This document shows positions 9,618 through 55,109 of a DNA stretch of 64,000 bases, piece by piece. The stretch is from Gammaproteobacteria bacterium (lineage in GTDB: Bacteria > Pseudomonadota > Gammaproteobacteria > JADZEE01), in assembly GCA_965225625.1 (NCBI GenBank), contig CBDDBH010000020.1, forward strand, positions 70,341-134,340. Direction: 5' to 3'. Every line of letters begins with the position of its first letter. The first letter of the stretch is position 1. Both the position numbers and the translations under genes were made by a program. The notes beneath the pieces are model-generated. The model did no database searches and was not told the DNA's origin. It saw only the letters and a list, made by a program, of their open reading frames with translations.

Positions 9618-10358
9618 ATGGCAAAAAGAATAAAAATTATATTTCCAGTCCCAATGAACGAGCACACTCGCGAAATGGTTGAATCGCAGATCCCGCCGGA
9701 GTTTATCCGCCCCGGCTTTGAGGTCGAGTTCGCCGGCTCCAAACGTTTGATGACGCTTGCCAGCAGTTACTACGACATGGCTATTATGGAAATGATCGTA
9801 TTGGAAGCTGGATTGAAGGCCGAAGAGGAAGGCTTCGACGCGGTGTGCATCAATACCGTAAGCGATTCGTCGCTGTACTCGTTGCGATCGCGTCTTAGCA
9901 TCCCCGTCATTTCTCCCGGGCAAAGTGCGTTTCATGTCGCCTGTATGCTTGGCCACAAGTTTTCGGTCATCACAATGTGGGACGAATGGTATCCGCTTTA
10001 TAAGAAAACTCTCACCGATTACGGACTTATGTCGCGGGTCGCATCAATACGCTCCATCGACACCCGACCTGACGTACAGGAACTGTTGGAAGGCAAAGAG
10101 GAGATCGTCTTCGGTAAACTCGAAGCACAGGCACGCGCGGCGATGGAAGAAGACGGTGCGGACGTTATTGTTCTGGGTTCGACGACGATGCACCAATCAC
10201 ATCAACACTTGAAAAAGACGCTGCCGATACCAGTTATTAATCCGGGGGTGATCGCCTACAAGTTGTGTGAAGTGTTCTTAGAGTTGGATTTGTGTCATTC
10301 GAAGTCGGCGTTTCCGACGCCTGAGAATATTCAGGACGAGAATTTGTTTCCGATTTAG
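9618..10358 (+). CDS. Asp/Glu/hydantoin racemase superfamily protein (maleate isomerase / arylmalonate decarboxylase-like).
   Basis: Two-lobed racemase-like sequence carrying the INTVSDS and VLGSTTM motifs. Confidence 0.55.
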   Translation: MAKRIKIIFPVPMNEHTREMVESQIPPEFIRPGFEVEFAGSKRLMTLASSYYDMAIMEMIVLEAGLKAEEEGFDAVCINTVSDSSLYSLRSRLSIPVISPGQSAFHVACMLGHKFSVITMWDEWYPLYKKTLTDYGLMSRVASIRSIDTRPDVQELLEGKEEIVFGKLEAQARAAMEEDGADVIVLGSTTMHQSHQHLKKTLPIPVINPGVIAYKLCEVFLELDLCHSKSAFPTPENIQDENLFPI

Positions 10359-10395
10359 CGGTGCACCTCCGTATCCATCAATAGATGAGGGAAAA

Positions 10396-10821
10396 TAAAT
10401 TGGGGTCAATAAATTGGGGTCAATAAATTGGGGTCAATAAATTGGGGTCAATAAATTGGGGTCAATAAATTGGGGTCAATAAATTGGGGTCAATAAATTG
10501 GGGTCAATAAATTGGGGTCAATAAATTGGGGTCAATAAATTGGGGTCAATAAATTGGGGTCAATAAATTGGGGTCAATAAATTGGGGTCAATAAATTGGG
10601 GTCAATAAATTGGGGTCAATAAATTGGGGTCAATAAATTGGGGTCAATAAATTGGGGTCAATAAATTGGGGTCAATAAATTGGGGTCAATAAATTGGGGT
10701 CAATAAATTGGGGTCAATAAATTGGGGTCAATAAATTGGGGTCAATAAATTGGGGTCAATAAATTGGGGTCAATAAATTGGGGTCAATAAATTGGGGTCA
10801 ATAAATTGGGGTCAATAAATT
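10396..10821. repeat. Perfect 14-bp tandem repeat (GGGGTCAATAAATT), 30 full copies plus a diverged 31st copy that runs into a hairpin.
   Basis: GGGG occurs at 10402 + 14k for k = 0..29 with no mismatch. The array is intergenic, between the convergent racemase-family gene and the DMT transporter gene. It is AT-rich against a high-GC background. The period is not a multiple of 3. Confidence 0.95.
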
Positions 10822-10865
10822 GGGGTCAGATACACATTTCTGTTCGGAAATATGTATCTGACCCC
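10822..10865. terminator. Long hairpin (19-bp stem, 6-nt loop) immediately after the tandem array; candidate bidirectional terminator.
   Basis: ggggtcagatacacatttc-tgttcg-gaaatatgtatctgacccc, with 1 mismatch in the stem. The left arm is itself a partial repeat unit. Sits between convergent 3' ends. Confidence 0.45.
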
Positions 10866-10896
10866 AATTTATTTATGGGGGGGACGCGCCCCAAAG

Positions 10897-11832
10897 TCAT
10901 GTAGGTTGTTCCACCGGCGGGCTGCTGCTGCGGGATTCCAGAATAATGATGCCGAAAATGATCAGGCCGGCGCCGCCTAATTGCGGGAGCGTCATGGTCT
11001 CGCCCAGTATCCACCAAGCTATGAGGATTGTTGACGGTGGTCCGACCGTACCCAGGATTGCTCCTCTTTGCGCACCGATACGCTTCACCCCTTCCGTGAT
11101 CATCAACATGGGCGTCACAGTGACGAATGCGACCATGAACAGAAGTAGCACCCATCCGTCTCGACCCAGACTAAACGCCTGCCAATCGACGGATATGCTG
11201 ATGTGGAGGAACAGGCCAAACGCTGCCGCTGTCATAGCGTAAAGGGTAAACGCGATGCTGCCCACCCGGCGCCCCACGCGCTCACTGAACATCATGAACA
11301 TACCGGTCGTGCAGGCGGAAATGAAGATCACGCTGGCTCCGCGCGCGTTGGCCGACATCAATTCAAGATCGAGCCCGCCCACTGCCAATACAACGCCGAT
11401 ATAGGTCACGACAGTCGCGGCTATTACGCGTCGCTGGGGCCAACGTCTTGTCAAACAAGCGTCGACTATCACGACCATTGTCGGAAAGGTGTACAAAATC
11501 ACACGCTCCAGACTCGCATCGATCAGCGTGAGGCCATAGAAATTAATCATTGCCCCCGCGTAATACCCGATCACACCCGCAAACATTGCCCAAGCAATCG
11601 CAGCCCGATCCACCGATAGCAAAGGCCGCCAACCCATTCGATAAATACCCCACAGCCAAAACAGCGGTAATGCCACGATGGCACGTATTCCGGTAAGCGC
11701 ATCGAAAGTCAGTCCGTGGGCGTACAACAATTTCGCCATAATCCCTTTCGCAGACAGCAACAGCGAACCGACAATAATGAGGCCGGTCCCGACGAGCGCA
11801 ATTTTGCCGGTGCTGTTTTGATTGGACGACAT
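10897..11832 (-). CDS. DMT-superfamily (EamA-like) transporter.
   Basis: About 10 TM helices with two EamA-like halves. Confidence 0.65.
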   Translation of the reverse strand: MSSNQNSTGKIALVGTGLIIVGSLLLSAKGIMAKLLYAHGLTFDALTGIRAIVALPLFWLWGIYRMGWRPLLSVDRAAIAWAMFAGVIGYYAGAMINFYGLTLIDASLERVILYTFPTMVVIVDACLTRRWPQRRVIAATVVTYIGVVLAVGGLDLELMSANARGASVIFISACTTGMFMMFSERVGRRVGSIAFTLYAMTAAAFGLFLHISISVDWQAFSLGRDGWVLLLFMVAFVTVTPMLMITEGVKRIGAQRGAILGTVGPPSTILIAWWILGETMTLPQLGGAGLIIFGIIILESRSSSPPVEQPT

Positions 11833-11878
11833 CGGGGGATTGGATAACTAATTAATTTGTTGTGAGCGAGGCAGCGGC

Positions 11879-12793
11879 TTACGCTGCCTGCTTAGGGAAC
11901 AAACCGGCCTTGGTGACCATCCCAGGAACACTTGCTTCCAGCGGGCCTTCCAGCCAACGGGCTGTTTCCATTACCTGCTCGATTGAGATACCGGTGTGCA
12001 ATCCCATGCGATTGAGCATGTACAAAACATCTTCGGTCGCAACGTTACCTGTCGCGCCCGGCGCAAAGGGGCAACCGCCCACACCGCCGCAACTTGCATC
12101 GATGATGCGCACGCCAGCCTGCACAGCCGCGTAAACATTAGCGACGCCGGTGTTGCGGGTATTGTGAAAGTGACATCGTAACGGCGTATCTCCACTCACG
12201 CTCGACACCGCCTCGATCAAACGCGTTACCTCGGAGGGAACGCCGACACCGATGGTATCCGCCAACGCCAACTCATCAATGCCCATGGCGATGACGCGTT
12301 CAGCAACGCTAACGACTTTCTCAACCGGCACCTCGCCCTCGAAAGGGCAACCGAACGCTGCTGCGACGGTTACGCTGAAGCGTCTGCCGGCCTCACGAGC
12401 CTGCGCCGAAATGCGTTCAACCGTCTGCAACATCTGTTCGGTAGTTGCACCCTGATTGCGTTGGTTGAATGTATCCGTCACACACAGCGCACAGCCTATC
12501 TCATCAATGTCGGTGGCCATGGCGCGTTCAAAACCGCGCTCGTTGAGCACCAATCCGATGTACGTCACGTCGTCGCGCTTTGGCAGGGCAGCGACCACCG
12601 CTTCGCAATCAGCCATTTGCGGTACCCGCTTTGGATTCACGAAACTCGCGACCTCTAGTCGCGGGACACCTGCATCAACCAGGCGGGTGATAAATTCGAT
12701 TTTGCTTTCGGTATCGAGGAGCTTGGGCTGACTTTGCAAACCGTCGCGTGGTCCGACATCGACGATCTCAATTTCTCTCGCTGGCGTGCTCAT
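11879..12793 (-). CDS. Hydroxymethylglutaryl-CoA lyase family protein.
   Basis: DRE-TIM fold motifs: VGPRDGLQ and HFHNTRNTGVANVYAAVQAG. Start taken at the ATG of MSTPAREIEI; the TTG 54 nt upstream is an alternative. Confidence 0.7.
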   Translation of the reverse strand: MSTPAREIEIVDVGPRDGLQSQPKLLDTESKIEFITRLVDAGVPRLEVASFVNPKRVPQMADCEAVVAALPKRDDVTYIGLVLNERGFERAMATDIDEIGCALCVTDTFNQRNQGATTEQMLQTVERISAQAREAGRRFSVTVAAAFGCPFEGEVPVEKVVSVAERVIAMGIDELALADTIGVGVPSEVTRLIEAVSSVSGDTPLRCHFHNTRNTGVANVYAAVQAGVRIIDASCGGVGGCPFAPGATGNVATEDVLYMLNRMGLHTGISIEQVMETARWLEGPLEASVPGMVTKAGLFPKQAA

Positions 12794-46239: not shown

Positions 46240-48843
46240 ATGCGAACACGAACGCTCAGATGTTGCCGTGAGTTACTTATACTAGCTCTTGCATGCGCTA
46301 TACAGTCGGCATACAGCGAACCCGTCACCAAAATTCTCAACAACGGAGATGCGAAGAATCGTATTGATATTGTGGTAATGGGCGATGGATTTACGACAGC
46401 CGAATTAAGTGCTTTTGCGACCGCTGTGCAGACCTTGTTCAACGGTTTCTTCGATGAAGAACCGTTTAAAGAATATAAGTCCTATTTCAATGTACACAGA
46501 ATTGACGTTGTAAGTACTGATTCAGGAATAGATCACCCTGAAAACAACGTGTTCAAGGAGACGGCACTAGGCGGGCACTTCAATTGTACCGGTATACAGC
46601 GACTTATTTGCGTAGACGCCAGCAAGGTTAATGTTGTCTTGGATAACAGCGTGGCAGCAGACGAACGAGATATTATACTTGTCATCGTAAATGACCCGCA
46701 GAGCGCAGGCACCGCTCAGAGCGGCATCGGAATTGTCACGACTCACGCCGACTATATAGACATCACCCTACATGAGCTCGGACACAGTTTTGGACTTCTC
46801 GGCGACGAATTCGAGACCAATCCCCCGCCGTGCATCAACAACATTGAGCCATTTCAAGTAAATGTTACCAAGGAGACCGACCGCAATCTCATCAAGTGGA
46901 ACACTGAAGGTGGCCCGCCTACCGGTTGGATAGATAGCAATACCTTAGTGCCGACGACTAGCACAACCGATGGAGTGCCCGGGTTATATGAAGGCGCTAA
47001 ATTTTGTTCTTCAGGCCTATACCGGCCAACGCATGAGTCGAAAATGCGTGTTTCAAGCAAGCCTTTTGAGCAAATCAATGAAGAACAGCTCATAAAACGC
47101 ATTTACAACTTTGTGTCGCCAATTGAAACAATCGATCCGGTCAATCTTGACGTAATACTCGAACAAGGAGCGAGTACAACATTCCGGATAACGACAATGT
47201 CTCCTCCGACACAAAGTCTTTCGATTGCGTGGTCATTGAATGGTGCGGCGCAAGGAGCGGGGCTCGAGTTCACATTGAACACGACTGGCCTGACCCCGGG
47301 CATTTATAACGTGAAAGTCGTGGTAAAGGACCAAAACCCTAAGGTGCGTAACGACCCTGATGGCGAAATACCTGAAACTCTCGAATGGAGGGTAGCGGTT
47401 CAGGACAACGATGGAGTATCTGAGGCGCCGCTAGCTGATCAAGACCAGCCGAATGTTTCGACCACTGGTGCGGGAACCGCCATCGGTCTGACGACTAACA
47501 ATTCGCCGCAAAAGGTCGCGCAAACTGTCACCGCTGGCCGCGCCGGATTTCTTGCAGAAATCCGACTCCTGGTTGCATGCACATCGGGAGATTTGGACGT
47601 CGAAATACAGCGCGTAACAGCTGGCAATCCGGACGGCACAGTACTCGCTTCAGAAACTGTTCCTGGTTCCGCAATACCGTTTCCTCGGATCTTCAGGAGG
47701 GTCATCTTCTCGAATCCTGCATTTTTCCCGGTAGGGGGCCAGTTCGCGATAGTTTTGAAATCAGCAGGAAGCTGCGGCATCGACCGCGGTCTCGCCAAAA
47801 CAGAAAGCCAAACACATGCCGAAGCAGATTATTACACATCAGGAACTGCGTTTTTTGCGAATGCCGCTATCCCCGAGTGGTCTTCGCTTAACAATAGTAC
47901 CGCCGGAAAGGACTATCCTTTTCAGACGCTGGTCCCGTTGGACAATTGTCCATTTGTCGCGAACCCGACCCAAGCTGACTTTGACAATGACGGTGCCGGT
48001 GATGCCTGCGACGACAGCGATAGTGATGGAGTCGTCGACGCTGACGATGCCTTCCCTGGCGATCCGAATGAAACAGTTGATACCGATAATGACGGCACCG
48101 GAAATAATGCCGACACTGACGACGATAACGACCAGGTACTGGACACCCAGGACGCGTTCCCACTCGATGCCAACGAATCGGTAGATACCGATAGTGACGG
48201 CACCGGCAATAATGCCGACACTGACGACGATAACGACGGAGTGCTGGACACCCAGGACGCTTTCCCACTCGATGCCAACGAATCTGTGGATACCGATAGT
48301 GACGGCACCGGGAATAATGCCGACACGGATGATGACAACGACGGGGTGCTGGACACCCAGGACGCTTTCCCACTCGATGCCAACGAATCGGTAGACACCG
48401 ATAATGACGGCACCGGCAATAATGCGGACACCGACGACGATAACGACGGGGTGCTCGACACCCAGGACGCGTTCCCACTCAATGCTAACGAATCGGTGGA
48501 TACCGATAGTGACGGCACCGGCAATAACGCCGACACCGACGACGACAACGACGGTGTGCTGGACACGACGGATGCGTTTCCGCTTGATCCCGCCGAATCG
48601 GTGGATACCGATAGTGATGGCGTCGGCAATAATGCCGACACGGACGATGACAATGACGGGATGCCGGACAGCTTTGAGACGGCAAATAATTTTGATCCCT
48701 TGAATGCCGCAGATGGGAGCCAGGACGCAGATGGCGACGGCTTTACGAATGAACGGGAATTTCGCGCAGGCACAGATCCACACGACGCCAACTCGATACC
48801 CAAGGGCTCACTGTTCTGGCTTCCGCTGATATTGGACGAATGA
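46240..48843 (+). CDS. M64-family (IgA-peptidase-like) zinc metallopeptidase fused to 6-7 thrombospondin type-3-like Ca-binding repeats.
   Basis: DIVVMGDGFT and HELGHSFGLLGDEF (HExxH) are the M64 motifs. The C-terminal half is repeats of DTDxDGxGNNADTDDDNDGVLD, a TSP3 DxDxDGxxDxxD pattern. Confidence 0.7.
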   Translation: MRTRTLRCCRELLILALACAIQSAYSEPVTKILNNGDAKNRIDIVVMGDGFTTAELSAFATAVQTLFNGFFDEEPFKEYKSYFNVHRIDVVSTDSGIDHPENNVFKETALGGHFNCTGIQRLICVDASKVNVVLDNSVAADERDIILVIVNDPQSAGTAQSGIGIVTTHADYIDITLHELGHSFGLLGDEFETNPPPCINNIEPFQVNVTKETDRNLIKWNTEGGPPTGWIDSNTLVPTTSTTDGVPGLYEGAKFCSSGLYRPTHESKMRVSSKPFEQINEEQLIKRIYNFVSPIETIDPVNLDVILEQGASTTFRITTMSPPTQSLSIAWSLNGAAQGAGLEFTLNTTGLTPGIYNVKVVVKDQNPKVRNDPDGEIPETLEWRVAVQDNDGVSEAPLADQDQPNVSTTGAGTAIGLTTNNSPQKVAQTVTAGRAGFLAEIRLLVACTSGDLDVEIQRVTAGNPDGTVLASETVPGSAIPFPRIFRRVIFSNPAFFPVGGQFAIVLKSAGSCGIDRGLAKTESQTHAEADYYTSGTAFFANAAIPEWSSLNNSTAGKDYPFQTLVPLDNCPFVANPTQADFDNDGAGDACDDSDSDGVVDADDAFPGDPNETVDTDNDGTGNNADTDDDNDQVLDTQDAFPLDANESVDTDSDGTGNNADTDDDNDGVLDTQDAFPLDANESVDTDSDGTGNNADTDDDNDGVLDTQDAFPLDANESVDTDNDGTGNNADTDDDNDGVLDTQDAFPLNANESVDTDSDGTGNNADTDDDNDGVLDTTDAFPLDPAESVDTDSDGVGNNADTDDDNDGMPDSFETANNFDPLNAADGSQDADGDGFTNEREFRAGTDPHDANSIPKGSLFWLPLILDE
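48060..48680 (+). repeat. Intragenic near-identical 120-bp tandem repeats (about 6 copies) that encode the TSP3-like units.
   Basis: gacaccgatagtgacggcaccggcaataatgccgacac... recurs with only a few substitutions per copy. It also generates long spurious antisense ORFs. Confidence 0.7.
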
Positions 48844-48891: not shown

Positions 48892-49064
48892 CGGGTTTTG
48901 GGGGACACCGTTAACTTATTAACTTAATTTTCGGTTTTTGAGAGCCCATCGATGTCCAGGGTTGCATCCAACACAATTCGAACGCCCCCGCTTATCCGTG
49001 TCATCCAAAAAGATCGTCCGTCGCTTTAAGTTAATAAGTTAACGGTGTCCCCCAATTTCCCGTT
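48892..49064. repeat. MITE-like element: imperfect ~36-bp terminal inverted repeats around a 98-bp core, with a 23-bp tandem duplication at the left end.
   Basis: Left arm 48898-48927 ttgggggacaccgttaacttattaacttaa equals the reverse complement of right arm 49026-49055. 48868-48889 and 48891-48912 are direct repeats. The element is intergenic, between the M64 peptidase and the amidohydrolase. Confidence 0.5.
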
Positions 49065-49177
49065 CGTAGTTAGCTCTGGTTAGCCGGACCCGCCACGCCC
49101 GCGCACTAGCCCAATAGGATTTGGAGCACCGCTCCGGCACACGAAAAATACCGCCGTCCGGTGCATAATCACGCTCT

Positions 49178-50968
49178 ATGCGTCGCACGGATAGATGTAG
49201 GGCTTCGGTACGTCCGCCCGGTACGTGGCAGGCCCTGCGCCTCCTGCACATGCTGTACCTGCTCTGGTACGGCATGGCTCTACAGGCGCAGTGTCCGCCG
49301 GCCGAGCAACGCGGCGCGCCCGCGGACCGGTTGTACGTCCACGGCACCGTGCTGAGCATGGACGAGGCCATAGGCACTGCGACGGCCGTGGCTGTGCGGG
49401 ACGGCAGGATCGCAGCCGTCGGTGACGACGATGCTGTTTCGTGTCTGCAGGGGCCCTCCACGCAGGTGACCGATCTGGTGGGGCGTACGCTGCTCCCCGG
49501 GTTCATAGACTCCCACTCGCATCTGGCCTATGTCGGTATCTACAACGAACACGCTGCGCCACTGTACGGTCCGCCCATCGGCACGGTCGACTCGATGGAA
49601 GGACTGTTGGCGGCGCTGCGCGACCGGGCAGCTGCAACCCCGGCTGGTGAATGGGTCTATGGGGTAGGCTACGACGACACGACGGTGCGCGAACGACGCC
49701 ACCCTACGCGCCATGATCTGGACCGCGTCTCCACGCGCCACCCCATATGGCTTTATCACATGTCGTTTCACTATGCGGCAGTCAACACGCTCGGACTGAC
49801 GCGACTGGGCATTACCGCGGACACGAAGGATCCGGCGGGCGGAACGGTACACCGGGATCCGGGCACACGAGTGCCAAACGGTTTGCTTGAGGAAGGTCCG
49901 GCCCTGCAACTCGGGTTCGGTTACGATCTGCCCATCACGGATGAGGAGGCCATCCAGGCTATCCGAGGCGCTGCCGACCTATACGCGAGCCGCGGATTTA
50001 CAACGGCGCAGTCGGGGCAAGCGAGCGTCCGCCAGTTTCAATTGATGCAACGCGCCTACACCGAAGATGCGTCCCCCTCGGTGCGCTTGATGGTGTATAC
50101 GGACCGTCCCGCCACAGCGGAACTGCTGGCGGGCCGTCTGCAGCCAGATCCCGCCGTCCATCCGGATATGATGCGCATTGCGGCGGCGAAGCTTTTCGCC
50201 GACGGCGCGATCCAAGGCTATACGGCCTATCTGCGCGAACCCTACTTCCGGCCGCCCGGGGACAAAGCGGATTTCCGGGGATATCCGCAGCAGACCATAG
50301 AGGAACTCACGGACACTCTGTCCACGTACTGCCAGCAAAGTCTGCGCGTGGCGGTGCACGCAAATGGCGATGCGGCAATCGATCAGGTTCTCGATGCCTG
50401 GGACAATGCGCGCCGCGCCGTCGGCCGCTGCGACGATCGCCTGGTCATCATCCACGCGCAAATGGCCCGTCGAGAGCAACTCCAGCGCATGAAGGTGCTC
50501 GGCGCCATCCCATCCTTCTTCATCCTGCACACGTATTACTACGGCGACGCGCATATTGCCCAGTTCCTCGGCCGCGAACGCGCTTTCGAGATCTCCCCGG
50601 CGCGCTGGGCGCGCGACCTCGACATCCCCTACACCATTCACATGGACTCACCGGTGGTACCCGTAAACGCTCTGGATCTGCTGTGGGCGGCCGTCCGCCG
50701 CAACACACGCTCGGGCGTGGTACTCGGACCAAAACAGCGTGTCGATGTCCTCGATGCGCTGAAAGCAATGACCATCAATGCTGCCTGGCAGTACCGCCAG
50801 GAAGACGTTAAGGGATCCGTAACGCCGGGAAAGTTCGTAGACCTCGTTGTGCTCTCGGCGAATCCGCTCGTCGACCCTGGGGGGATCCGCGACATCCGCA
50901 TCGAGGAGACCGTGCTCGGCGGGCGCGTCGTCTATCGGCGGAATCAGGCCCGAGACGCCGGCGAATAA
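49178..50968 (+). CDS. Amidohydrolase-family (Amidohydro_3-like) metal-dependent hydrolase.
   Basis: LPGFIDSHSHL metal-binding motif and the VAVRDGRIAAVGDD N-terminal domain. Start uncertain (49178, 49250 or 49274). Confidence 0.7.
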   Translation: MRRTDRCRASVRPPGTWQALRLLHMLYLLWYGMALQAQCPPAEQRGAPADRLYVHGTVLSMDEAIGTATAVAVRDGRIAAVGDDDAVSCLQGPSTQVTDLVGRTLLPGFIDSHSHLAYVGIYNEHAAPLYGPPIGTVDSMEGLLAALRDRAAATPAGEWVYGVGYDDTTVRERRHPTRHDLDRVSTRHPIWLYHMSFHYAAVNTLGLTRLGITADTKDPAGGTVHRDPGTRVPNGLLEEGPALQLGFGYDLPITDEEAIQAIRGAADLYASRGFTTAQSGQASVRQFQLMQRAYTEDASPSVRLMVYTDRPATAELLAGRLQPDPAVHPDMMRIAAAKLFADGAIQGYTAYLREPYFRPPGDKADFRGYPQQTIEELTDTLSTYCQQSLRVAVHANGDAAIDQVLDAWDNARRAVGRCDDRLVIIHAQMARREQLQRMKVLGAIPSFFILHTYYYGDAHIAQFLGRERAFEISPARWARDLDIPYTIHMDSPVVPVNALDLLWAAVRRNTRSGVVLGPKQRVDVLDALKAMTINAAWQYRQEDVKGSVTPGKFVDLVVLSANPLVDPGGIRDIRIEETVLGGRVVYRRNQARDAGE

Positions 50969-51018
50969 GCGGTCCACGATGAGGGGTTGTCTTTGCCGCT
51001 AGGAAAGGACGCCGCTTG

Positions 51019-51069
51019 AATGGTGCCGGAGAGGTGACTCGAACACCCGACCTACTGATTACGAATCAG
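51019..51069 (-). repeat. tRNA-Thr(CGU) 3' fragment (anticodon stem through CCA); direct repeat copy 1, an att-type site.
   Basis: The minus-strand read cctgattcgtaatcagg-taggtc-gggtgttcgagtcacct-ctccggc-a-cca folds as anticodon arm (anticodon CGT), T-arm, acceptor 3' strand and CCA. No D-arm or 5' acceptor follows. Confidence 0.7.
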
Positions 51070-51239
51070 GGGCCCGAGTATCATCTAACCCTTTGACAAA
51101 ATTGAATATTCTTCTCATTTGATTGTCCCTTGTTTGCGTCAATTTGCCTCCTAAAACCCCTGCTTGTCGAGTTTGCTCAGCTCCCGCCGATGACGTTACG
51201 CAAGTCCGTCAGTAAGCTAGCTTTTGTCTGGACACGATT

Positions 51240-51542
51240 TCACGCAGCCCGAGCACGTACTTCGTTTTTCAAGCGGTCGCCGAGCTGAATGCGGGCTTCC
51301 TCCAGGTCGTAATCGGCCTGAAGGCCCATCCACAAGGTCTCCGAAGTACCGAAATAGCGTGCCAGTCGAAGTGCCGTGTCGGCAGTTACGGCTCGCTTCC
51401 CGTGCACGATCTCATTGATGCGGCGTGGAGCCACACCGATCTCGCGTGCGAGCCGGTTTTGGCTGATCCCCATGGGGATCAGAAACTCGTCCAATAGCAC
51501 TTCTCCGGGATGAATGTTTTGCAGCCGCACCATGAGCTTCAC
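51240..51542 (-). CDS. higA: HigA antitoxin (XRE-family HTH).
   Basis: The LSQNRLAREIGVAPRRINEIVHGKRAVTADTALRLARYFGTS helix-turn-helix. Immediately downstream of higB with a 3-bp gap. Confidence 0.8.
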   Translation of the reverse strand: MKLMVRLQNIHPGEVLLDEFLIPMGISQNRLAREIGVAPRRINEIVHGKRAVTADTALRLARYFGTSETLWMGLQADYDLEEARIQLGDRLKNEVRARAA

Positions 51543-51545
51543 CTT

Positions 51546-51827
51546 TCAGTGATAATCTACAATCTCTACATTGCGAGCGTTGCCCCGCTGCCAGACGAAG
51601 CAGATCCGCCACTGTTCATTAACGCGGATACTGTACTGTCCCGCTCGACCACCTTTCAGGCGTTCGAGCCGGTTGGCTGGCGGAATGCGCAGGTCATCCA
51701 GGGAACGCGCGTTGTTCAGCATACGTAGCTTGCGGCGCGCTATTTGTTGAATGTCCTGAGGTAGCCGCCGCGAACGCTGCCCTTGCCAGATCTTCTCAGT
51801 TTCCCTTCCCTGGAAGCTTTCGATCAT
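51546..51827 (-). CDS. higB: HigB toxin (RelE/ParE superfamily, 'plasmid maintenance system killer').
   Basis: 93 aa with LKGGRAGQYSIRVNEQWRICF...VEIVDYH, a HigB-type sequence. Toxin-first gene order. Confidence 0.8.
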   Translation of the reverse strand: MIESFQGRETEKIWQGQRSRRLPQDIQQIARRKLRMLNNARSLDDLRIPPANRLERLKGGRAGQYSIRVNEQWRICFVWQRGNARNVEIVDYH

Positions 51828-51834
51828 TGGCGAA

Positions 51835-51872
51835 CTATAACGCGTTGCGTTATATAACGCAACGCGTTATAG
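51835..51872. promoter_or_regulatory. Perfect 38-bp palindrome 8 bp upstream of the higB start; candidate HigA operator / promoter.
   Basis: ctataacgcgttgcgttat|ataacgcaacgcgttatag was checked base by base and is perfectly symmetric. It contains two AACGCGTT sub-palindromes. Confidence 0.6.
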
Positions 51873-51904
51873 CCCTAAGTAAGAGATTTCGTTAACGCCT
51901 TGTA

Positions 51905-51955
51905 AATGGTGCCGGAGAGGTGACTCGAACACCCGACCTACTGATTACGAATCAG
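51905..51955 (-). repeat. tRNA-Thr(CGU) 3' fragment; direct repeat copy 2 (identical 51 bp).
   Basis: Base-for-base identical to 51019-51069. The flanks differ on both sides. Confidence 0.7.
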
Positions 51956-52137
51956 TTATATAACTATTCTCCGTTATCGATCTCAGTCCATCCGGTTCAA
52001 TAACTGGTTAATTATCCGATGGATTAAATCTATTTACATCCACTTGCATCAAGGGCGTGCGACGGGTATCTTGGCGTTGGGGTGACATAATGGTGACGCA
52101 GATGGACGGTGCCTCATCCCTCAACCAGGAGCACGCC

Positions 52138-53301
52138 ATGCTGACCGAACGCATCATCCGGGACGCCCAACCCGAGCCGAAAACCCGCATCCTGTGGGAC
52201 CAGGAGGTGAAGGGCCTGGGTGTCCGCATCACGCCGAAGGGTACGAAAGCCTATGTGCTCGACTACCGAATGCACGGCCGCCGCCATCGTGTGGTGCTGG
52301 CCCGAACGGCCGAGATCTCCTTGGAGGAAGTCCGCAAGCGCGCCGGTGCCGAGCGGGTGCGGATCCGCGCCGGCGAGGGCGATCTGCTGACGCGGCGGCG
52401 CGAGGCGCGTGCGTCACCCACGGTGACCGAGGGATTGGAGCGGTTCTTCGCCGAATATGTGCCGACGCGGCTGGCAGCGGGCCGCATGGCTCAGGGTACG
52501 GTCGATAGCTATCGCCAACAAGCTGCCCGATACCTGCGGCCTGCCCTTGGCCGGCGGCAGATCGCCGACATCACGCGCCACGACATCGAGCGCATGGTGG
52601 CGCCGCTCGCGACGGTCGCACCGGTGCAGCGTAACCGCGTGCTGGCGTTCACGAGCCGGCTGTTCCGGTTGTTCGAAGATTGGGAGCTGCGCCCGCAGCA
52701 CACGAACCCTACGCGGGGTATCGAGCGGGCGCGTGAGGAAGCGCGTGACCGGGTGCTCACGCCGTCGGAGATGACGGCACTCGGTGCGGCGCTGGCACGC
52801 GCGGAGAAGGACAAGCCCGCGGCCGTAGCGGCGATCCGGGTGGCGGCCCTGACGGGTCTGCGCATTGGCGAGGTGCTGGCGATGCGCTGGGAGCACTTAG
52901 ACACTGAGCACAAAGCCGTGGTGCTGCCCCACACGAAGACCGGGCGGCGCGTGCACGGCCTGCCCGCGGCGGCGCTCGAGCTGCTCGCGGGCCTGCCGCG
53001 CATCAACGGCTACGTGTTCACCACCGGACGCGACGCGGCCATTACGTATCAAACGGCCCACGCGGCCTTCGCAACCCTGGCGCGCGAAGCCGGCCTGTCG
53101 GACGTGCGCCTGCACGACCTGCGCCGCACGGTCATGACGAGCGCGGCGCGCGCGGGGGTCGGCACCCATGTACTACGCGACCTGCTCGGGCACAAGACCA
53201 CGGCGATGGCCGACCGCTACATCCGGCATGCCGGCGCGGCGGTTCACGAGGCCCAGGAGCACATCGGCGCGGCCATCGACGCGCAGCTGCGGGGCTTATG
53301 A
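52138..53301 (+). CDS. int: Tyrosine-type site-specific integrase (P4-like, with a DUF4102 arm-binding N-domain).
   Basis: ILWDQEVKGLGVRITPKGTKAYVLDYR (DUF4102-like) followed by the catalytic R...HDLRRT...Y region. Start taken at ATG 52138, which has an AGGAG RBS. Lies beside the att repeat. Confidence 0.85.
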   Translation: MLTERIIRDAQPEPKTRILWDQEVKGLGVRITPKGTKAYVLDYRMHGRRHRVVLARTAEISLEEVRKRAGAERVRIRAGEGDLLTRRREARASPTVTEGLERFFAEYVPTRLAAGRMAQGTVDSYRQQAARYLRPALGRRQIADITRHDIERMVAPLATVAPVQRNRVLAFTSRLFRLFEDWELRPQHTNPTRGIERAREEARDRVLTPSEMTALGAALARAEKDKPAAVAAIRVAALTGLRIGEVLAMRWEHLDTEHKAVVLPHTKTGRRVHGLPAAALELLAGLPRINGYVFTTGRDAAITYQTAHAAFATLAREAGLSDVRLHDLRRTVMTSAARAGVGTHVLRDLLGHKTTAMADRYIRHAGAAVHEAQEHIGAAIDAQLRGL

Positions 53302-53332
53302 TGGCGCCCGATACACGACGGAGGTTGGTTCG

Positions 53333-54133
53333 ATGAGCGGAACGGAGACCCCTCCTGAGCCGATCGAATGGTGCCCGCAGTGCGGTTCGCCGGTGATGAC
53401 GCCGGCGAACGTGCCCATGAGCGTGGACGCCGGTATGTGCCCAACGTGTGGGCAGAGCCCGATGGCGGCGGTTGTTCAGGACCTCTACGGCCCGGACACG
53501 AATCTGGGCGAACATCGAAGAAAGCTTATCGAGTACTTATCGGAGCTGACTAGGCTCCAGGAGCGCCGGAAAGAGGAGGATCTGCCCCCGTCCTATCAAG
53601 AGGCCGTGGACCTCGTGAAGCGGTATCCCTGGCCCGACCCTGAAGACCCCGAGGCTTGGGCCACCTTTGGGCTCATTTTACACTGTGTGATCTGGGTGGA
53701 TGGACAAGGGATGCTGATAGAAGAGCGCATCCGGGAGTTGCTTGAAGTCTGGCGAGACGAAAGCGAGCGGAAGTGGGATCGATTTTGGGTGCAGGAAGCG
53801 CTCGAAAAAATCGCAGCTCAGGCGCAGAAGGATCATCCACTCGCCGTTGAGATCTTCCAACGGCTGGCGAGCGGACGCCTCAACCGTCCGAGAGGTCGGT
53901 GCGATCCGCGGACAGATGAGGTTCGCAATACGAGTGTCGTCACGGTGATCGGGCATTTGCAGAGCCTGGGCATGAATCCGACGCGAAATGAAGTGAGCCC
54001 GGAACATTCCGCGTGCGATGCGGTCGCGGAAGCGACCGACTTGGAGTTGCCGACGGTCGAGACGATTTGGAAGCGGCGGACGGGCACGCAAGCAAACCGA
54101 CACAGGACCAGGGGGCAGTACGATGGGGCATGA
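53333..54133 (+). CDS. Hypothetical protein with an N-terminal zinc-ribbon (CPQCG...CPTCG).
   Basis: GGAGG RBS. Two CxxC pairs 25 aa apart. The C-terminal ~200 aa is acidic and helical with no known family. Overlaps the next gene by 11 bp. Confidence 0.45.
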   Translation: MSGTETPPEPIEWCPQCGSPVMTPANVPMSVDAGMCPTCGQSPMAAVVQDLYGPDTNLGEHRRKLIEYLSELTRLQERRKEEDLPPSYQEAVDLVKRYPWPDPEDPEAWATFGLILHCVIWVDGQGMLIEERIRELLEVWRDESERKWDRFWVQEALEKIAAQAQKDHPLAVEIFQRLASGRLNRPRGRCDPRTDEVRNTSVVTVIGHLQSLGMNPTRNEVSPEHSACDAVAEATDLELPTVETIWKRRTGTQANRHRTRGQYDGA

Positions 54134-55109
54134 CCTTTTCCAGGGCAGCATGGCGTTCGTGGGCGAGACACCGTGGCACCGCCTCGGCACGGCGGTTGAA
54201 TCACACATAACAGCGGAGCAGATGATGTGCGCGGCCAATTTGGATTGGCAGGTTCAAAAAGAGCCCGCCCCCGGCGCTCGGCTGCTCGATGCAGGCAGGA
54301 AAGTCTACGACCGGTACATCGTGCTGCGTGACCCGGTGGGTGACGAGACCGAGGCGGTCGCGCTCGCCATCGTCGGCAAGGATTACGAGTCGCTCCAGAA
54401 CAAGGATGCGTTCACGTTCTTCGAGCCCTTCATTGACAATGGCTGGGCCGAGTTCCACACAGCGGGCGCGTTGGGCAACGGCGAGCGGGTTTGGGCGCTG
54501 GCGCGGCTGTCGGAACAAATGGTCATCCATGGGGACGACCCTGTCGATCGCTTCCTGCTGCTCTCCAACTCCCATGACGGGTCGAGCGCCGTCACTGTGC
54601 GGTTCACGCCGGTCCGAGTCGTCTGCCAAAATACGCTGAGCCTCGCACAGGCGGGCGGGACGGGGGTCGTGTCCGTCCGTCATACCCGAAATATTCGCCA
54701 CAATCTGAAAAAAACCCAGGCGCAAGCATTGAAGCGTCTCTCCGATGCGGTATTTGCTGAGGCCGGATCCCTGTTCGCTTGCATGGCAGAGTGCAGTGTG
54801 GCGCCCGCAGCGGTAGACGGTTATCTAGAGACGCTGTTTCCGAGGACTCGCCGGCAGAAGACCCAAGGTCTGGAACCTGAGCGGTGGGGCCGCGTGAAGC
54901 AGATCCTTGGCGACGACACCGTCACGCCGTCCGCGACACGCGAGACGCTGTGGGCGCTCTACAACGCGGTCGTTCGGGATGAAGACTACCGCCGTACCCG
55001 CGAAGTGACCCGGGATGCACGATTGGAACGCGTGTGGTTCGGGCGCGGCTATGACTTGAAACGCAAGGCGCTTGAAACGGCCCGAGCTCAGTTGGCGAGC
55101 GCCGCCTGA
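54123..55109 (+). CDS. DUF932-domain protein (a mobile-element-associated family).
   Basis: The LLLSNSHDGSSAVTVRFTPVRVVCQNTL block is recalled from DUF932. About 328 aa from MGHDLFQG. Confidence 0.6.
   Translation: MGHDLFQGSMAFVGETPWHRLGTAVESHITAEQMMCAANLDWQVQKEPAPGARLLDAGRKVYDRYIVLRDPVGDETEAVALAIVGKDYESLQNKDAFTFFEPFIDNGWAEFHTAGALGNGERVWALARLSEQMVIHGDDPVDRFLLLSNSHDGSSAVTVRFTPVRVVCQNTLSLAQAGGTGVVSVRHTRNIRHNLKKTQAQALKRLSDAVFAEAGSLFACMAECSVAPAAVDGYLETLFPRTRRQKTQGLEPERWGRVKQILGDDTVTPSATRETLWALYNAVVRDEDYRRTREVTRDARLERVWFGRGYDLKRKALETARAQLASAA

Follow-up and report, generated by a model that had tools for sequence, protein, structure and literature searches.

The closest described system to the locus reported here is BrickBuilt, a Porphyromonas gingivalis MITE (miniature inverted-repeat transposable element) with a minisatellite of 1–22.8 copies of a 23-nt unit (PMC4596501). 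It likewise carries a spacer-less array in a small, intergenic, non-autonomous element with inverted-repeat ends, for which no autonomous partner is known, and its copy number is variable as well (1 to ~23 between loci and strains). The locus in question is a perfect tandem array of a 14-bp unit adjoining a palindromic element in a 64,000-nt stretch of a gammaproteobacterial contig (CBDDBH010000020.1, positions 70,341 to 134,340), which is called the window in the following. Whereas the BrickBuilt repeats are 23 nt long, imperfect, internal (located between leader and tail), species-restricted and present at 19 loci per genome, the unit in the window comprises 14 nt, is repeated perfectly and consists of the outer edge of the element plus local flank; the element itself occurs in low copy number, with a core that several genera have in common. 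The locus is probably a low-copy, non-autonomous foldback element resembling MITEs or REPINs (hairpin-forming doublets of repetitive extragenic palindromes, REP), in which an edge duplication was amplified into the array.

In REPINs the inverted doublets are apparently the mobile unit and the singlets are remnants (PMC3116915). They resemble the present element in the occurrence of hairpin doublets together with singlets, in the extragenic location, often between convergent genes, and in higher-order tandems (PMC3116915). Unlike in REPINs, the core is not self-complementary here, has a density of at most about one copy per 64 kb, does not differ between beta- and gammaproteobacteria and is not accompanied by a REP-associated tyrosine transposase (RAYT) in the loci examined. 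The pdif sites, which delimit the dif modules of Acinetobacter plasmids, are 28 bp long (11-6-11) and bound by XerC/XerD (PMC6449649, PMC13141974). Similar to the present element, they are short, conserved sites with inverted arms and a 6-bp centre and bracket discrete accessory modules that vary between relatives, including toxin-antitoxin modules, and their enzyme acts in trans. In contrast to pdif, the arms here comprise 19–27 nt of unrelated sequence, many copies are half-sites, and in L016 and L051 the brackets are formed by direct copies. With intrinsic bidirectional terminators the element shares a stable stem, T-rich tracts on both sides and a distance of 23–35 nt from the convergent stop codons (array not counted), but the 27-bp stem is far longer than in typical terminators, belongs to a dispersed family and has a 435-bp repeat on one side. 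Foldback-type transposons, whose arms consist partly of short, variable-number tandem sub-repeats and which have almost no loop, as here, are eukaryotic and kilobase-sized, unlike here. MITEs of the Correia/NEMIS type form small palindromic terminators between genes, as the present element probably does, but have 26-bp terminal inverted repeats, a TA duplication and hundreds of copies. Neither foldback nor Correia elements are known to have any sequence in common with the core.

The array, its palindrome and their variation among strains

The array and the palindrome are situated between the following two convergent genes, for which both assignments made in the original prediction, a racemase (+) and a DMT transporter (−), were confirmed:

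9618 to 10358, + strand: gene of the Asp/Glu/hydantoin racemase family (Asp_Glu_race, PF01177)
10394 to 10828, + strand: perfect tandem array of AATAAATTGGGGTC × 31.07 (435 bp, 35.6% GC)
10814 to 10840, + strand: left arm of the palindrome, AATAAATTGGGGTCAGATACACATTTC, whose outer 15 nt are shared with the last unit of the array (inverted-repeat search, RNA fold)
10822 to 10840, + strand: conserved 19-mer core GGGGTCAGATACACATTTC (exact), with AATT just before it (motif scans, alignment)
10841 to 10846, no strand: centre of the palindrome, TGTTCG (6 nt), which is TGATCA in the new copy of strain L001 (inverted-repeat search)
10847 to 10873, − strand: right arm, read on this strand as AATAAATTGGGGTCAGATACATATTTC, with the sole arm mismatch at 10852 (A) (inverted-repeat search)
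10876 to 10893, + strand: G/C hairpin of small size, GGGGG.ACGCG.CCCC, located between the palindrome and the stop codon of EamA (second stem in the minimum free energy structure)
10897 to 11832, − strand: EamA/DMT transporter gene (PF00892)

A single array was detected by TRF at positions 10394–10828 (period 14, 31.1 copies, 100% matches, 0 indels, unit AATAAATTGGGGTC); all 31 units (31/31) have the same sequence. In the phase in which the repeat had originally been read (GGGGTCAATAAATT), 30 exact occurrences without any mismatch were counted, while 0.3 are expected in shuffled sequences. The claim of a perfect array is thereby confirmed at 31.07 units and 100% identity, and these spacer-less head-to-tail copies of a unit between 10 and 100 bp (14 bp × 31.1) have the structure of a variable-number tandem repeat (VNTR). 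The array is not a CRISPR array, as had also been stated, since the units abut and unique spacers between the repeats are absent from it. It begins 35 nt 3' of the stop codon of the racemase gene and is non-coding as proposed, with all reading frames of both strands closed within 13 codons. On the + strand, 32 GGGG tracts occur at a spacing of 10 nt. The GC content of the array (35.6%) is far below that of the neighbouring 1-kb windows (~55–58%); the genome is therefore at ~56% GC here and not at the ~60% given previously.

Each unit is composed of 8 nt of the flank of the element and the first 6 nt of the conserved core, joined head to tail; in other words, the outermost 14 nt of the left arm of the palindrome are repeated. 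The palindrome consists of two 27-nt arms (10814–10840 and 10847–10873), which are 96% complementary (one mismatch), around the 6-nt centre TGTTCG, giving a size of 60 bp, and its right arm ends 23 nt from the EamA stop codon. For the RNA of positions 10794–10910 a fold of −48.5 kcal/mol was predicted (z = −5.8 in comparison to shuffled sequences). The hairpin had previously been explained as a 19-bp stem formed by an inverted 31st unit. This has to be corrected, because the arms comprise 27 nt, of which unit sequence accounts for no more than the outer 15 in each; the remaining 12 nt towards the centre (AGATACACATTTC) were never found inside the array. The supposed terminal copy is a separate entity, a 60-bp palindromic element, and the array is an expansion of its outer edge.

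Other assemblies of the locus were found by exact look-up of the flanking proteins. Strain L001 (ENA ERZ21829562, 672-kb contig) possesses 2.1 units and L002 (ERZ28763709, 418-kb contig) 34.1 perfect units, both with identical flanking proteins. If the repeats are excluded, L001 and the window differ by two real single-nucleotide polymorphisms (SNPs) in ~6.7 kb, located at 12310 and at 10852 in the hairpin (A/G), and in a further stretch of 20.9 kb by 3 SNPs without any indel. Position 10852 is A in the window and G in L001, so that the hairpin of L001 is perfect. Between L002 and the window (~6.7 kb) there are no SNPs and only small gap-type differences, which are typical of noisy long reads. 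Over the ~28 kb compared among the strains, the array length and a 93-bp insertion are the only structural differences. A cluster of six mismatches between the two elements of L001, considered as a SNP cluster or gene-conversion tract, was rejected, since five of them are an alignment artefact at the array boundary.

These data bear out the prediction that the locus is a hypervariable VNTR: the requested comparison across strains yielded alleles of 2.1, 31.1 and 34.1 units in contigs that differ by 0–2 SNPs over ~6.7 kb. Furthermore, two short-read contigs (Logan ERR14231557/8) are 99.96–100% identical to the window, carry its hairpin allele and end inside the array after two units. Such a break is the expected behaviour when a repeat is longer than the k-mer of the assembler. 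The long array is present in independent assemblies and the short-read contigs break within it; therefore, it is no artefact of a single assembly. The 2-unit allele is a distinct haplotype with a perfect hairpin, because it is linked to a different hairpin SNP. In L002, the GST and LysR genes (2086–2878 and 1300–2082) are split or truncated by single-base gaps in comparison to the window and L001. These gaps are most likely homopolymer errors of the long reads, and for this reason the count of 34 units should be taken with caution.

A second, related palindrome was detected in L001 at a distance of 1 kb, in the spacer between the EamA and HMGL genes. It is 93 bp long, has TTAATT on both sides and folds into an essentially perfect 43-bp stem. 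The window and L002 exhibit a clean empty site there (CTAATTAATT followed by TGTTG):

11852 to 11857, no strand: unoccupied insertion site TTAATT within CTAATTAATT followed by TGTTG, in the EamA-HMGL spacer; filled in L001

The core of the insertion is identical to that of the first element (GGGGTCAGATACACATTTC ... GAAATGTGTATCTGACCCC). Its centre (TGATCA) and the sub-repeats of its flank (AATTAAATGGGGT, two to three per arm) are both unlike those of the first element, and for that reason the insertion is no local duplicate of it. Since this 93-bp copy was inserted 1 kb away in one strain, the presence of the element is polymorphic, which shows that members of the family come and go in a near-clonal population. 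Terminal inverted repeats, as expected for a MITE, are thus present in the form of 27-nt arms at the first element and of the 43-bp stem at the second.

A terminator role, as suggested in the original prediction, is plausible, and the hairpin is probably a bidirectional intrinsic terminator between the convergent genes. On the − strand a terminator-like structure was called with 20 counted pairs, 8 of them GC, and the T-rich tail ATTTATTG. The + strand has the tail ATTTATTTAT, and its stem contains a C-A mismatch in the window allele, while it is perfect in L001, in which the + strand is, by symmetry, terminator-like as well. Judged from this arrangement, EamA transcripts would meet the hairpin 23 nt past the stop codon and end before the array, and racemase transcripts would cross the whole array before reaching the hairpin and would thus carry it as a 3' untranslated region (UTR) of variable length.

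In a sister lineage (94% identical amino acids, ~81% identical nucleotides; L044, 10739–10828, and L046, 6771–6860), the spacer between the racemase and EamA genes contains an unrelated, G+C-rich, GTAG-type REP-like palindrome (…GGAGCGGCGTCCTCGCCGCGATTC…GAATCGCGGCGAGGACGCCGCTCC TACA…) and not the GGGGTCAG element. The spacer between these convergent genes has thus been colonised by more than one kind of palindromic repeat; a hairpin between these genes is therefore needed or at least tolerated. The spacer of the sister lineage could not be aligned, so that no ancestral empty site could be recovered for the element in the window.

The conserved core and its edge duplications

One genome per species (GTDB) and the JGI metagenomes were scanned with GGGGTCAGATACAYATTTC, and 11 loci were obtained from each. 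Exact matches to the 19-mer occurred in Marinobacter (L009, L015), Acidovorax (L011), Polaromonas (L013 = L019), two Gammaproteobacteria from Lac Pavin (L012, L016, L017 = L022) and the metagenome contigs L021, L024, L025 and L027. Approximately seven matches, which fall within genes of unrelated phyla or are not accompanied by the AAT[T/C] flank (L007, L008, L010, L014, L018/L020, L023/L028, L026), were judged to be chance; by our own estimate, ~9 chance matches are expected for the genome contigs. An alignment of 21 copies revealed AA at −4/−3 in at least 90%, T or C at −1 and C at +20 in the majority, all of which are outside the search pattern. The consensus core (~24 nt) is AAT[T/C]GGGGTCAGATACACATTTCC, and nothing beyond it is conserved in this alignment. 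Inverted doublets were found in the window, L001, L011 and L021, and singletons also occur. A search of other genomes for the unit had been proposed in the original prediction; the core is shared by distant beta- and gammaproteobacteria, and the sequence of the duplicated unit is locus-specific.

The core has no counterpart in the collections searched. Rfam (E ≤ 1) returned best matches of 20–28 bits against gathering thresholds of 76–100, and the exact 19-mer is absent from 72,556 plasmids (PLSDB), 50,697 phage records and 2.9 M viral contigs; one 17-mer match in the phage collection was taken as chance. The only PLSDB matches led to Tn6283 and the strand-biased circularizing elements, but these were 19 nt in the intB coding sequence of Vibrio pSEA1 (E = 6), concern the window-specific flank rather than the core and were rejected as chance. 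In a full-text search of the literature no paper with the 13-mer of the core was found, and its 10-mer occurred only in unrelated primers. Possible likenesses to the mosaic end of Tn5 (8 nt), the DnaA box, the outer repeats of N15 telRL and the GGGG ends of the Tn3 family were set aside as weak.

Many copies of the core show tandem duplications across its outer edge, which comprise ~8 nt of locus-specific flank and the first 5–9 nt of the core:

Window locus: unit of 14 bp, × 2, × 31 or × 34
L001 insertion: unit of 13 bp, × 2–3, on both arms
Marinobacter: unit of 16 bp, × 2
L025: unit of 17 bp, × 2
L012: unit of 19 bp, × 2

Additionally, the whole core is duplicated in L012 (36 bp × 2), and repeats of CACATTTCC (9–10 bp) are present at the inner edge in L016 and L051. 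A tandem repeat touches 7 of the 22 independent core copies, compared to a background of 3.4% in the same loci (binomial P = 5.6e-6). Both edges of the core are hot spots of short tandem duplication. As read from the sequences, microhomology at the duplication junctions amounts to 0–1 nt, and four of five duplications have their left boundary at −8. The duplicated 8-nt flanks differ by locus (AATTAAAT, AAATAACC, CATCAATC), and because a different flank is duplicated at each related locus, the unit is no conserved binding site. Going by these junctions, the duplications look like the fill-in of staggered nicks or like the restart of a fork blocked beside a protein-bound site. The array of 31–34 units is the extreme case of this family-wide trait.

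Copies of the core were also found at the borders of variable DNA. Three alleles (L012, L016 and L051) could be compared for one locus, which is situated between an SDR gene (upstream) and flgG (downstream). In the L012 allele two core copies lie at a distance of 36 bp, and nothing is inserted between them. In L016, three direct copies split two segments of 49% and 59% GC within flanks of 66.5%; each segment contains one unannotated open reading frame (ORF) followed by a core copy (site-ORF312-site-ORF184-site, same orientation), without an adjacent integrase and at this single locus. The L051 allele carries a 1.49-kb module, a diverged version of one of the L016 segments (65% amino acid identity), between exact 30-bp direct repeats that contain the core. 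Beyond this module lies a pseudogenised direct duplicate of 144 bp of the 3' end of the SDR gene (651–794 versus 2373–2516, 93% identity, in-frame stop), and 4 nt past the stop codon of the duplicate a perfect 23-bp palindrome of two core tips only follows (2519–2545, AAATTGGGGTCAGACCCCAATTT). This tip-to-tip palindrome may represent the site in an ancestral form or in its form as a target, or else a palindrome with a deleted centre.

In Marinobacter, two exact core copies form direct repeats ~17 kb apart, a PIN-toxin module is located between inverted copies, and an orphan Rhs fragment begins just past a variant copy. The Marinobacter metagenome-assembled genome L009 (896–2050, 4169–4546, 4545–4750) contains eight GGGGTCAGA in 8 kb; core variants (GGGGTCAGATCCACA…, GGGGTCAGATCGATT…) border the orphan Rhs/YD fragment and the PIN toxin gene, and a second array of locus-specific units (CACAACCAAGGGGTCGAG × 3–4) precedes one of them.

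Singletons occur just downstream of genes for AcrB, DUF2891, an SDR and an integrase and are oriented such that the stop codon lies on the side of their inner end. In L013, L024, L025 and L012/L016/L051 the ATTTCC end points to the stop of a gene that ends within ~150 nt, and the GGGG tip and the duplicated units point away; this orientation bias comprises ~5 independent cases, which are too few for significance. Taken together, the core marks borders of strain-variable DNA, which is compatible with transposon ends and fits a recombination site somewhat better.

Origin of the element and of the array

For a MITE- or REPIN-like foldback element, the following course of events would be the best explanation of the locus. 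Two inverted ~24-nt cores (AAT[T/C]GGGGTCAGATACACATTTCC) around a 6-nt centre are lodged in the convergent-gene spacer, where a trans-acting enzyme, either a transposase or a recombinase, would bind or nick the core. Repair or fork stalling at the core edge may then have led to the first two to three copies of the unit, and replication slippage or unequal sister exchange may have brought the 14-bp unit to 31–34 copies here, while the other strain kept two. Two or three perfect copies suffice for amplification by slippage or unequal exchange.

Several observations weigh against this explanation. No transposase, RAYT or recombinase is consistently located near any core copy examined, so that the enzymatic mobility is something we infer. 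The copy number is low: the 64-kb window contains one element, and no copy is present in the 20.7 kb examined of the sister lineage or in a further 21 kb of the L001 contig. In three loci the motif copies bracketing foreign DNA are direct and not inverted repeats, which is a better fit to a recombination site. Furthermore, the length of the target-site duplication of the L001 insertion is ambiguous, the 6-bp TTAATT repeat being AT-rich and nearly palindromic. The counts of 31 and 34 units were taken from assemblies and not from reads, and L002 shows indels of the Oxford Nanopore type elsewhere. Finally, the support for transcription termination at the hairpin is a pattern match.

Ranked second, though rather unlikely, is the explanation that the core serves site-specific recombination as an att-, dif- or attC-like site, at which a trans-acting recombinase inserts and shuffles modules. 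The palindrome in the window would then be a full site with two inverted binding arms and a 6-bp crossover region, and the array would have remained at the outer edge as a scar after repeated staggered cleavage with fill-in, or after strand exchange in a misaligned state, and would have been amplified later. The three alleles of the SDR locus (L012, L016, L051), which differ by modules between direct motif copies, fit this explanation, as do the direct copies ~17 kb apart and the PIN-toxin module between inverted copies in Marinobacter. Singletons lie consistently 3' of a gene and face its stop codon with their inner end, the duplications with 0–1 nt microhomology mostly start at −8, as the fill-in of staggered nicks would give, and the 6-nt centre fits the core geometry of tyrosine recombinases, e.g. 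dif with 11-6-11 (PMC6449649). Against it stands that the module model is supported by one multi-allele locus only, that the 93-bp insertion of L001 is too short for a double-stranded circle and that singletons have no recognisable inverted partner and are thus not complete core sites. The sequence also argues against known sites of this kind. The dif consensus reads …CATAA and TTATG… on the two sides of its centre, and the arms of the present element (…ACATTTC and GAAATGT…) do not match it although the 6-nt centre is present. In attC the core sites are RYYYAAC ... GTTRRRY, whereas the palindrome ends in AATAAATT...AATTTATT and has no GTTRRRY.

No recombinase was found beside any copy that could serve as a general partner. 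An all-against-all BLAST of the ORFs of the motif loci yielded no shared neighbour protein except for the orthology between L012 and L016, and searches of the ORFs of the motif-bracketed modules with Pfam, NCBIfam and PADLOC returned nothing except PIN, an Rhs fragment and an AlgH-like protein. The ORFs flanking the motif loci examined contain no transposase or recombinase domains, with the integrase of L013 as the single exception, and an autonomous insertion sequence with the same ends and a transposase gene was not found among the flanking ORFs or in the plasmid, phage and viral collections. The L013 integrase, a 499-amino-acid tyrosine recombinase of Polaromonas whose stop codon is ~30 bp from the core, was rejected as a general partner, since the core (≤4 mismatches) is absent from all 14 of the 14 loci sampled from its relatives.

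This integrase (L013, 3570–5069; L030–L043) belongs to a very large, almost unannotated family of tyrosine-recombinase-like proteins of ~450 amino acids with more than 2,800 matches. They are mostly encoded on contigs of 2–5 kb in the conserved order porin, int, DUF6641 and small integrase in Burkholderiales-like genomes, and the family appears to represent a small and widespread integrative island of its own. In the window itself, which otherwise has ~56% GC, a block of 63–71% GC extends from 49000 to 61000 and looks like an integrated island or satellite with the following genes:

52057 to 53301: P4-type tyrosine integrase
54018 to 55109: DUF932 protein
56022 to 56975: Toprim/DUF7146 protein
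59202 to 60947: PrimPol/D5_N primase

There are no tRNA genes in the window, so that the attachment site of the island is not a tRNA within it, and no core copies lie in the high-GC island, which is separate from the element. Inside the primase gene a 177-bp tandem duplication (× 2, 80% identity) was noted at 59126–59478. A further tandem repeat is located at 48079–48670 within the ORF 46240–48843, which encodes a Peptidase_M64 protein; it comprises 5.6 in-frame copies of 105 bp (87% identity) with D-rich repeats similar to thrombospondin type 3 and is a second, coding and potentially length-variable repeat.

A more far-reaching proposal, which must be regarded as speculative and unlikely, is that an undescribed, trans-acting recombination or transposition system of broad host range uses the core as its recognition site and inserts and exchanges single-gene modules downstream of chromosomal genes of beta- and gammaproteobacteria. 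Staggered cleavage at about −8 and at +5 to +9 followed by fill-in would give the tandem duplications, and the array in the window would be the runaway case.

It is improbable that the elements are REP/REPIN doublets mobilised as single strands by a single-copy RAYT (Y1 HUH) transposase, with the singlets as decaying remnants. Doublets (hairpins) and singlets are both present, the most recent copy forms a perfect hairpin and has the size of a REPIN, the location is extragenic between convergent genes, and tandem REP arrangements are known (PMC3116915). On the other hand, the single core (GGGGTCAGATACACATTTCC) is not palindromic, having no internal dyad, and in 21 copies it is preceded by AAT[T/C] and not by a GTAG-type tetranucleotide on the 5' side. 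Its density is ~1 per 64 kb and not tens to hundreds of copies per genome in the stretches examined (64 kb of the window, 20.7 kb of the sister lineage, 21 kb of L001), and no Y1 transposase was found in any locus examined. REP sequences are usually lineage-specific and inherited vertically with their RAYT, whereas the same 19-mer occurs here across genera.

The array as a selected device, be it a phase-variable insulator or 3'-UTR length switch, a binding array of IHF or iteron type or a G-quadruplex array, is very improbable. The array length does differ among strains, and the unit junction (TCAATAAATTG / TCAANNNNTTG) matches the TCAANNNNTTR part of the IHF consensus and is a candidate IHF site. 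The 32 GGGG tracts, 10 nt apart on one strand, could suggest quadruplexes, but loops of 10 nt are long for stable ones and count against it. The idea of an iteron-like array that titrates a protein, put forward in the original prediction, could not be upheld: no replication or partition gene is nearby, the neighbours being metabolic and transport genes, and the related loci duplicate different 8-nt flanks, so that the sequence of the unit is not conserved but differs at every related locus. As the strain with two units is otherwise identical, the array most likely represents a neutral by-product and not a device maintained by selection.

That the long array is an assembly artefact, i.e. a collapsed or expanded graph loop at a true locus of ~2 units, is hardly credible, for although the array is perfect, exceeds the typical length of short reads and is found in L002 in an error-prone long-read assembly (7 gap openings in 4.2 kb), long arrays of 31 and 34 units are present in two independent assemblies, two independent short-read contigs with the same hairpin allele stop within the repeat, which is expected only if it is longer than the k-mer, and the 2-unit allele is tied to a different hairpin SNP as a distinct haplotype.

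Meaning of the locus and of the core

With a copy number of 2, 31 and 34 and a nearby 93-bp insertion against ~5 SNPs over ~28 kb, the locus is at face value a very fast-evolving strain marker. The array is useful for strain tracking in metagenomes. For short-read assembly it is also a trap, since contigs break at it. In all likelihood this real, hypervariable VNTR is a minisatellite born from a small palindromic mobile element, and it shows how a perfect minisatellite can arise at the edge of such an element. Duplications with little microhomology have occurred repeatedly at the two edges of the core, which suggests that a protein cuts the DNA or causes forks to stall there.

Furthermore, the core borders foreign, unannotated modules in distant proteobacteria and has no match among the catalogued repeats, RNA families, plasmids, phages and published sequences searched. 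If a module-shuffling system were indeed involved, this would be considerably more interesting; such a system would resemble integron cassettes or dif modules, but at an unrelated site. The core may thus be the footprint of a mobile-DNA system.

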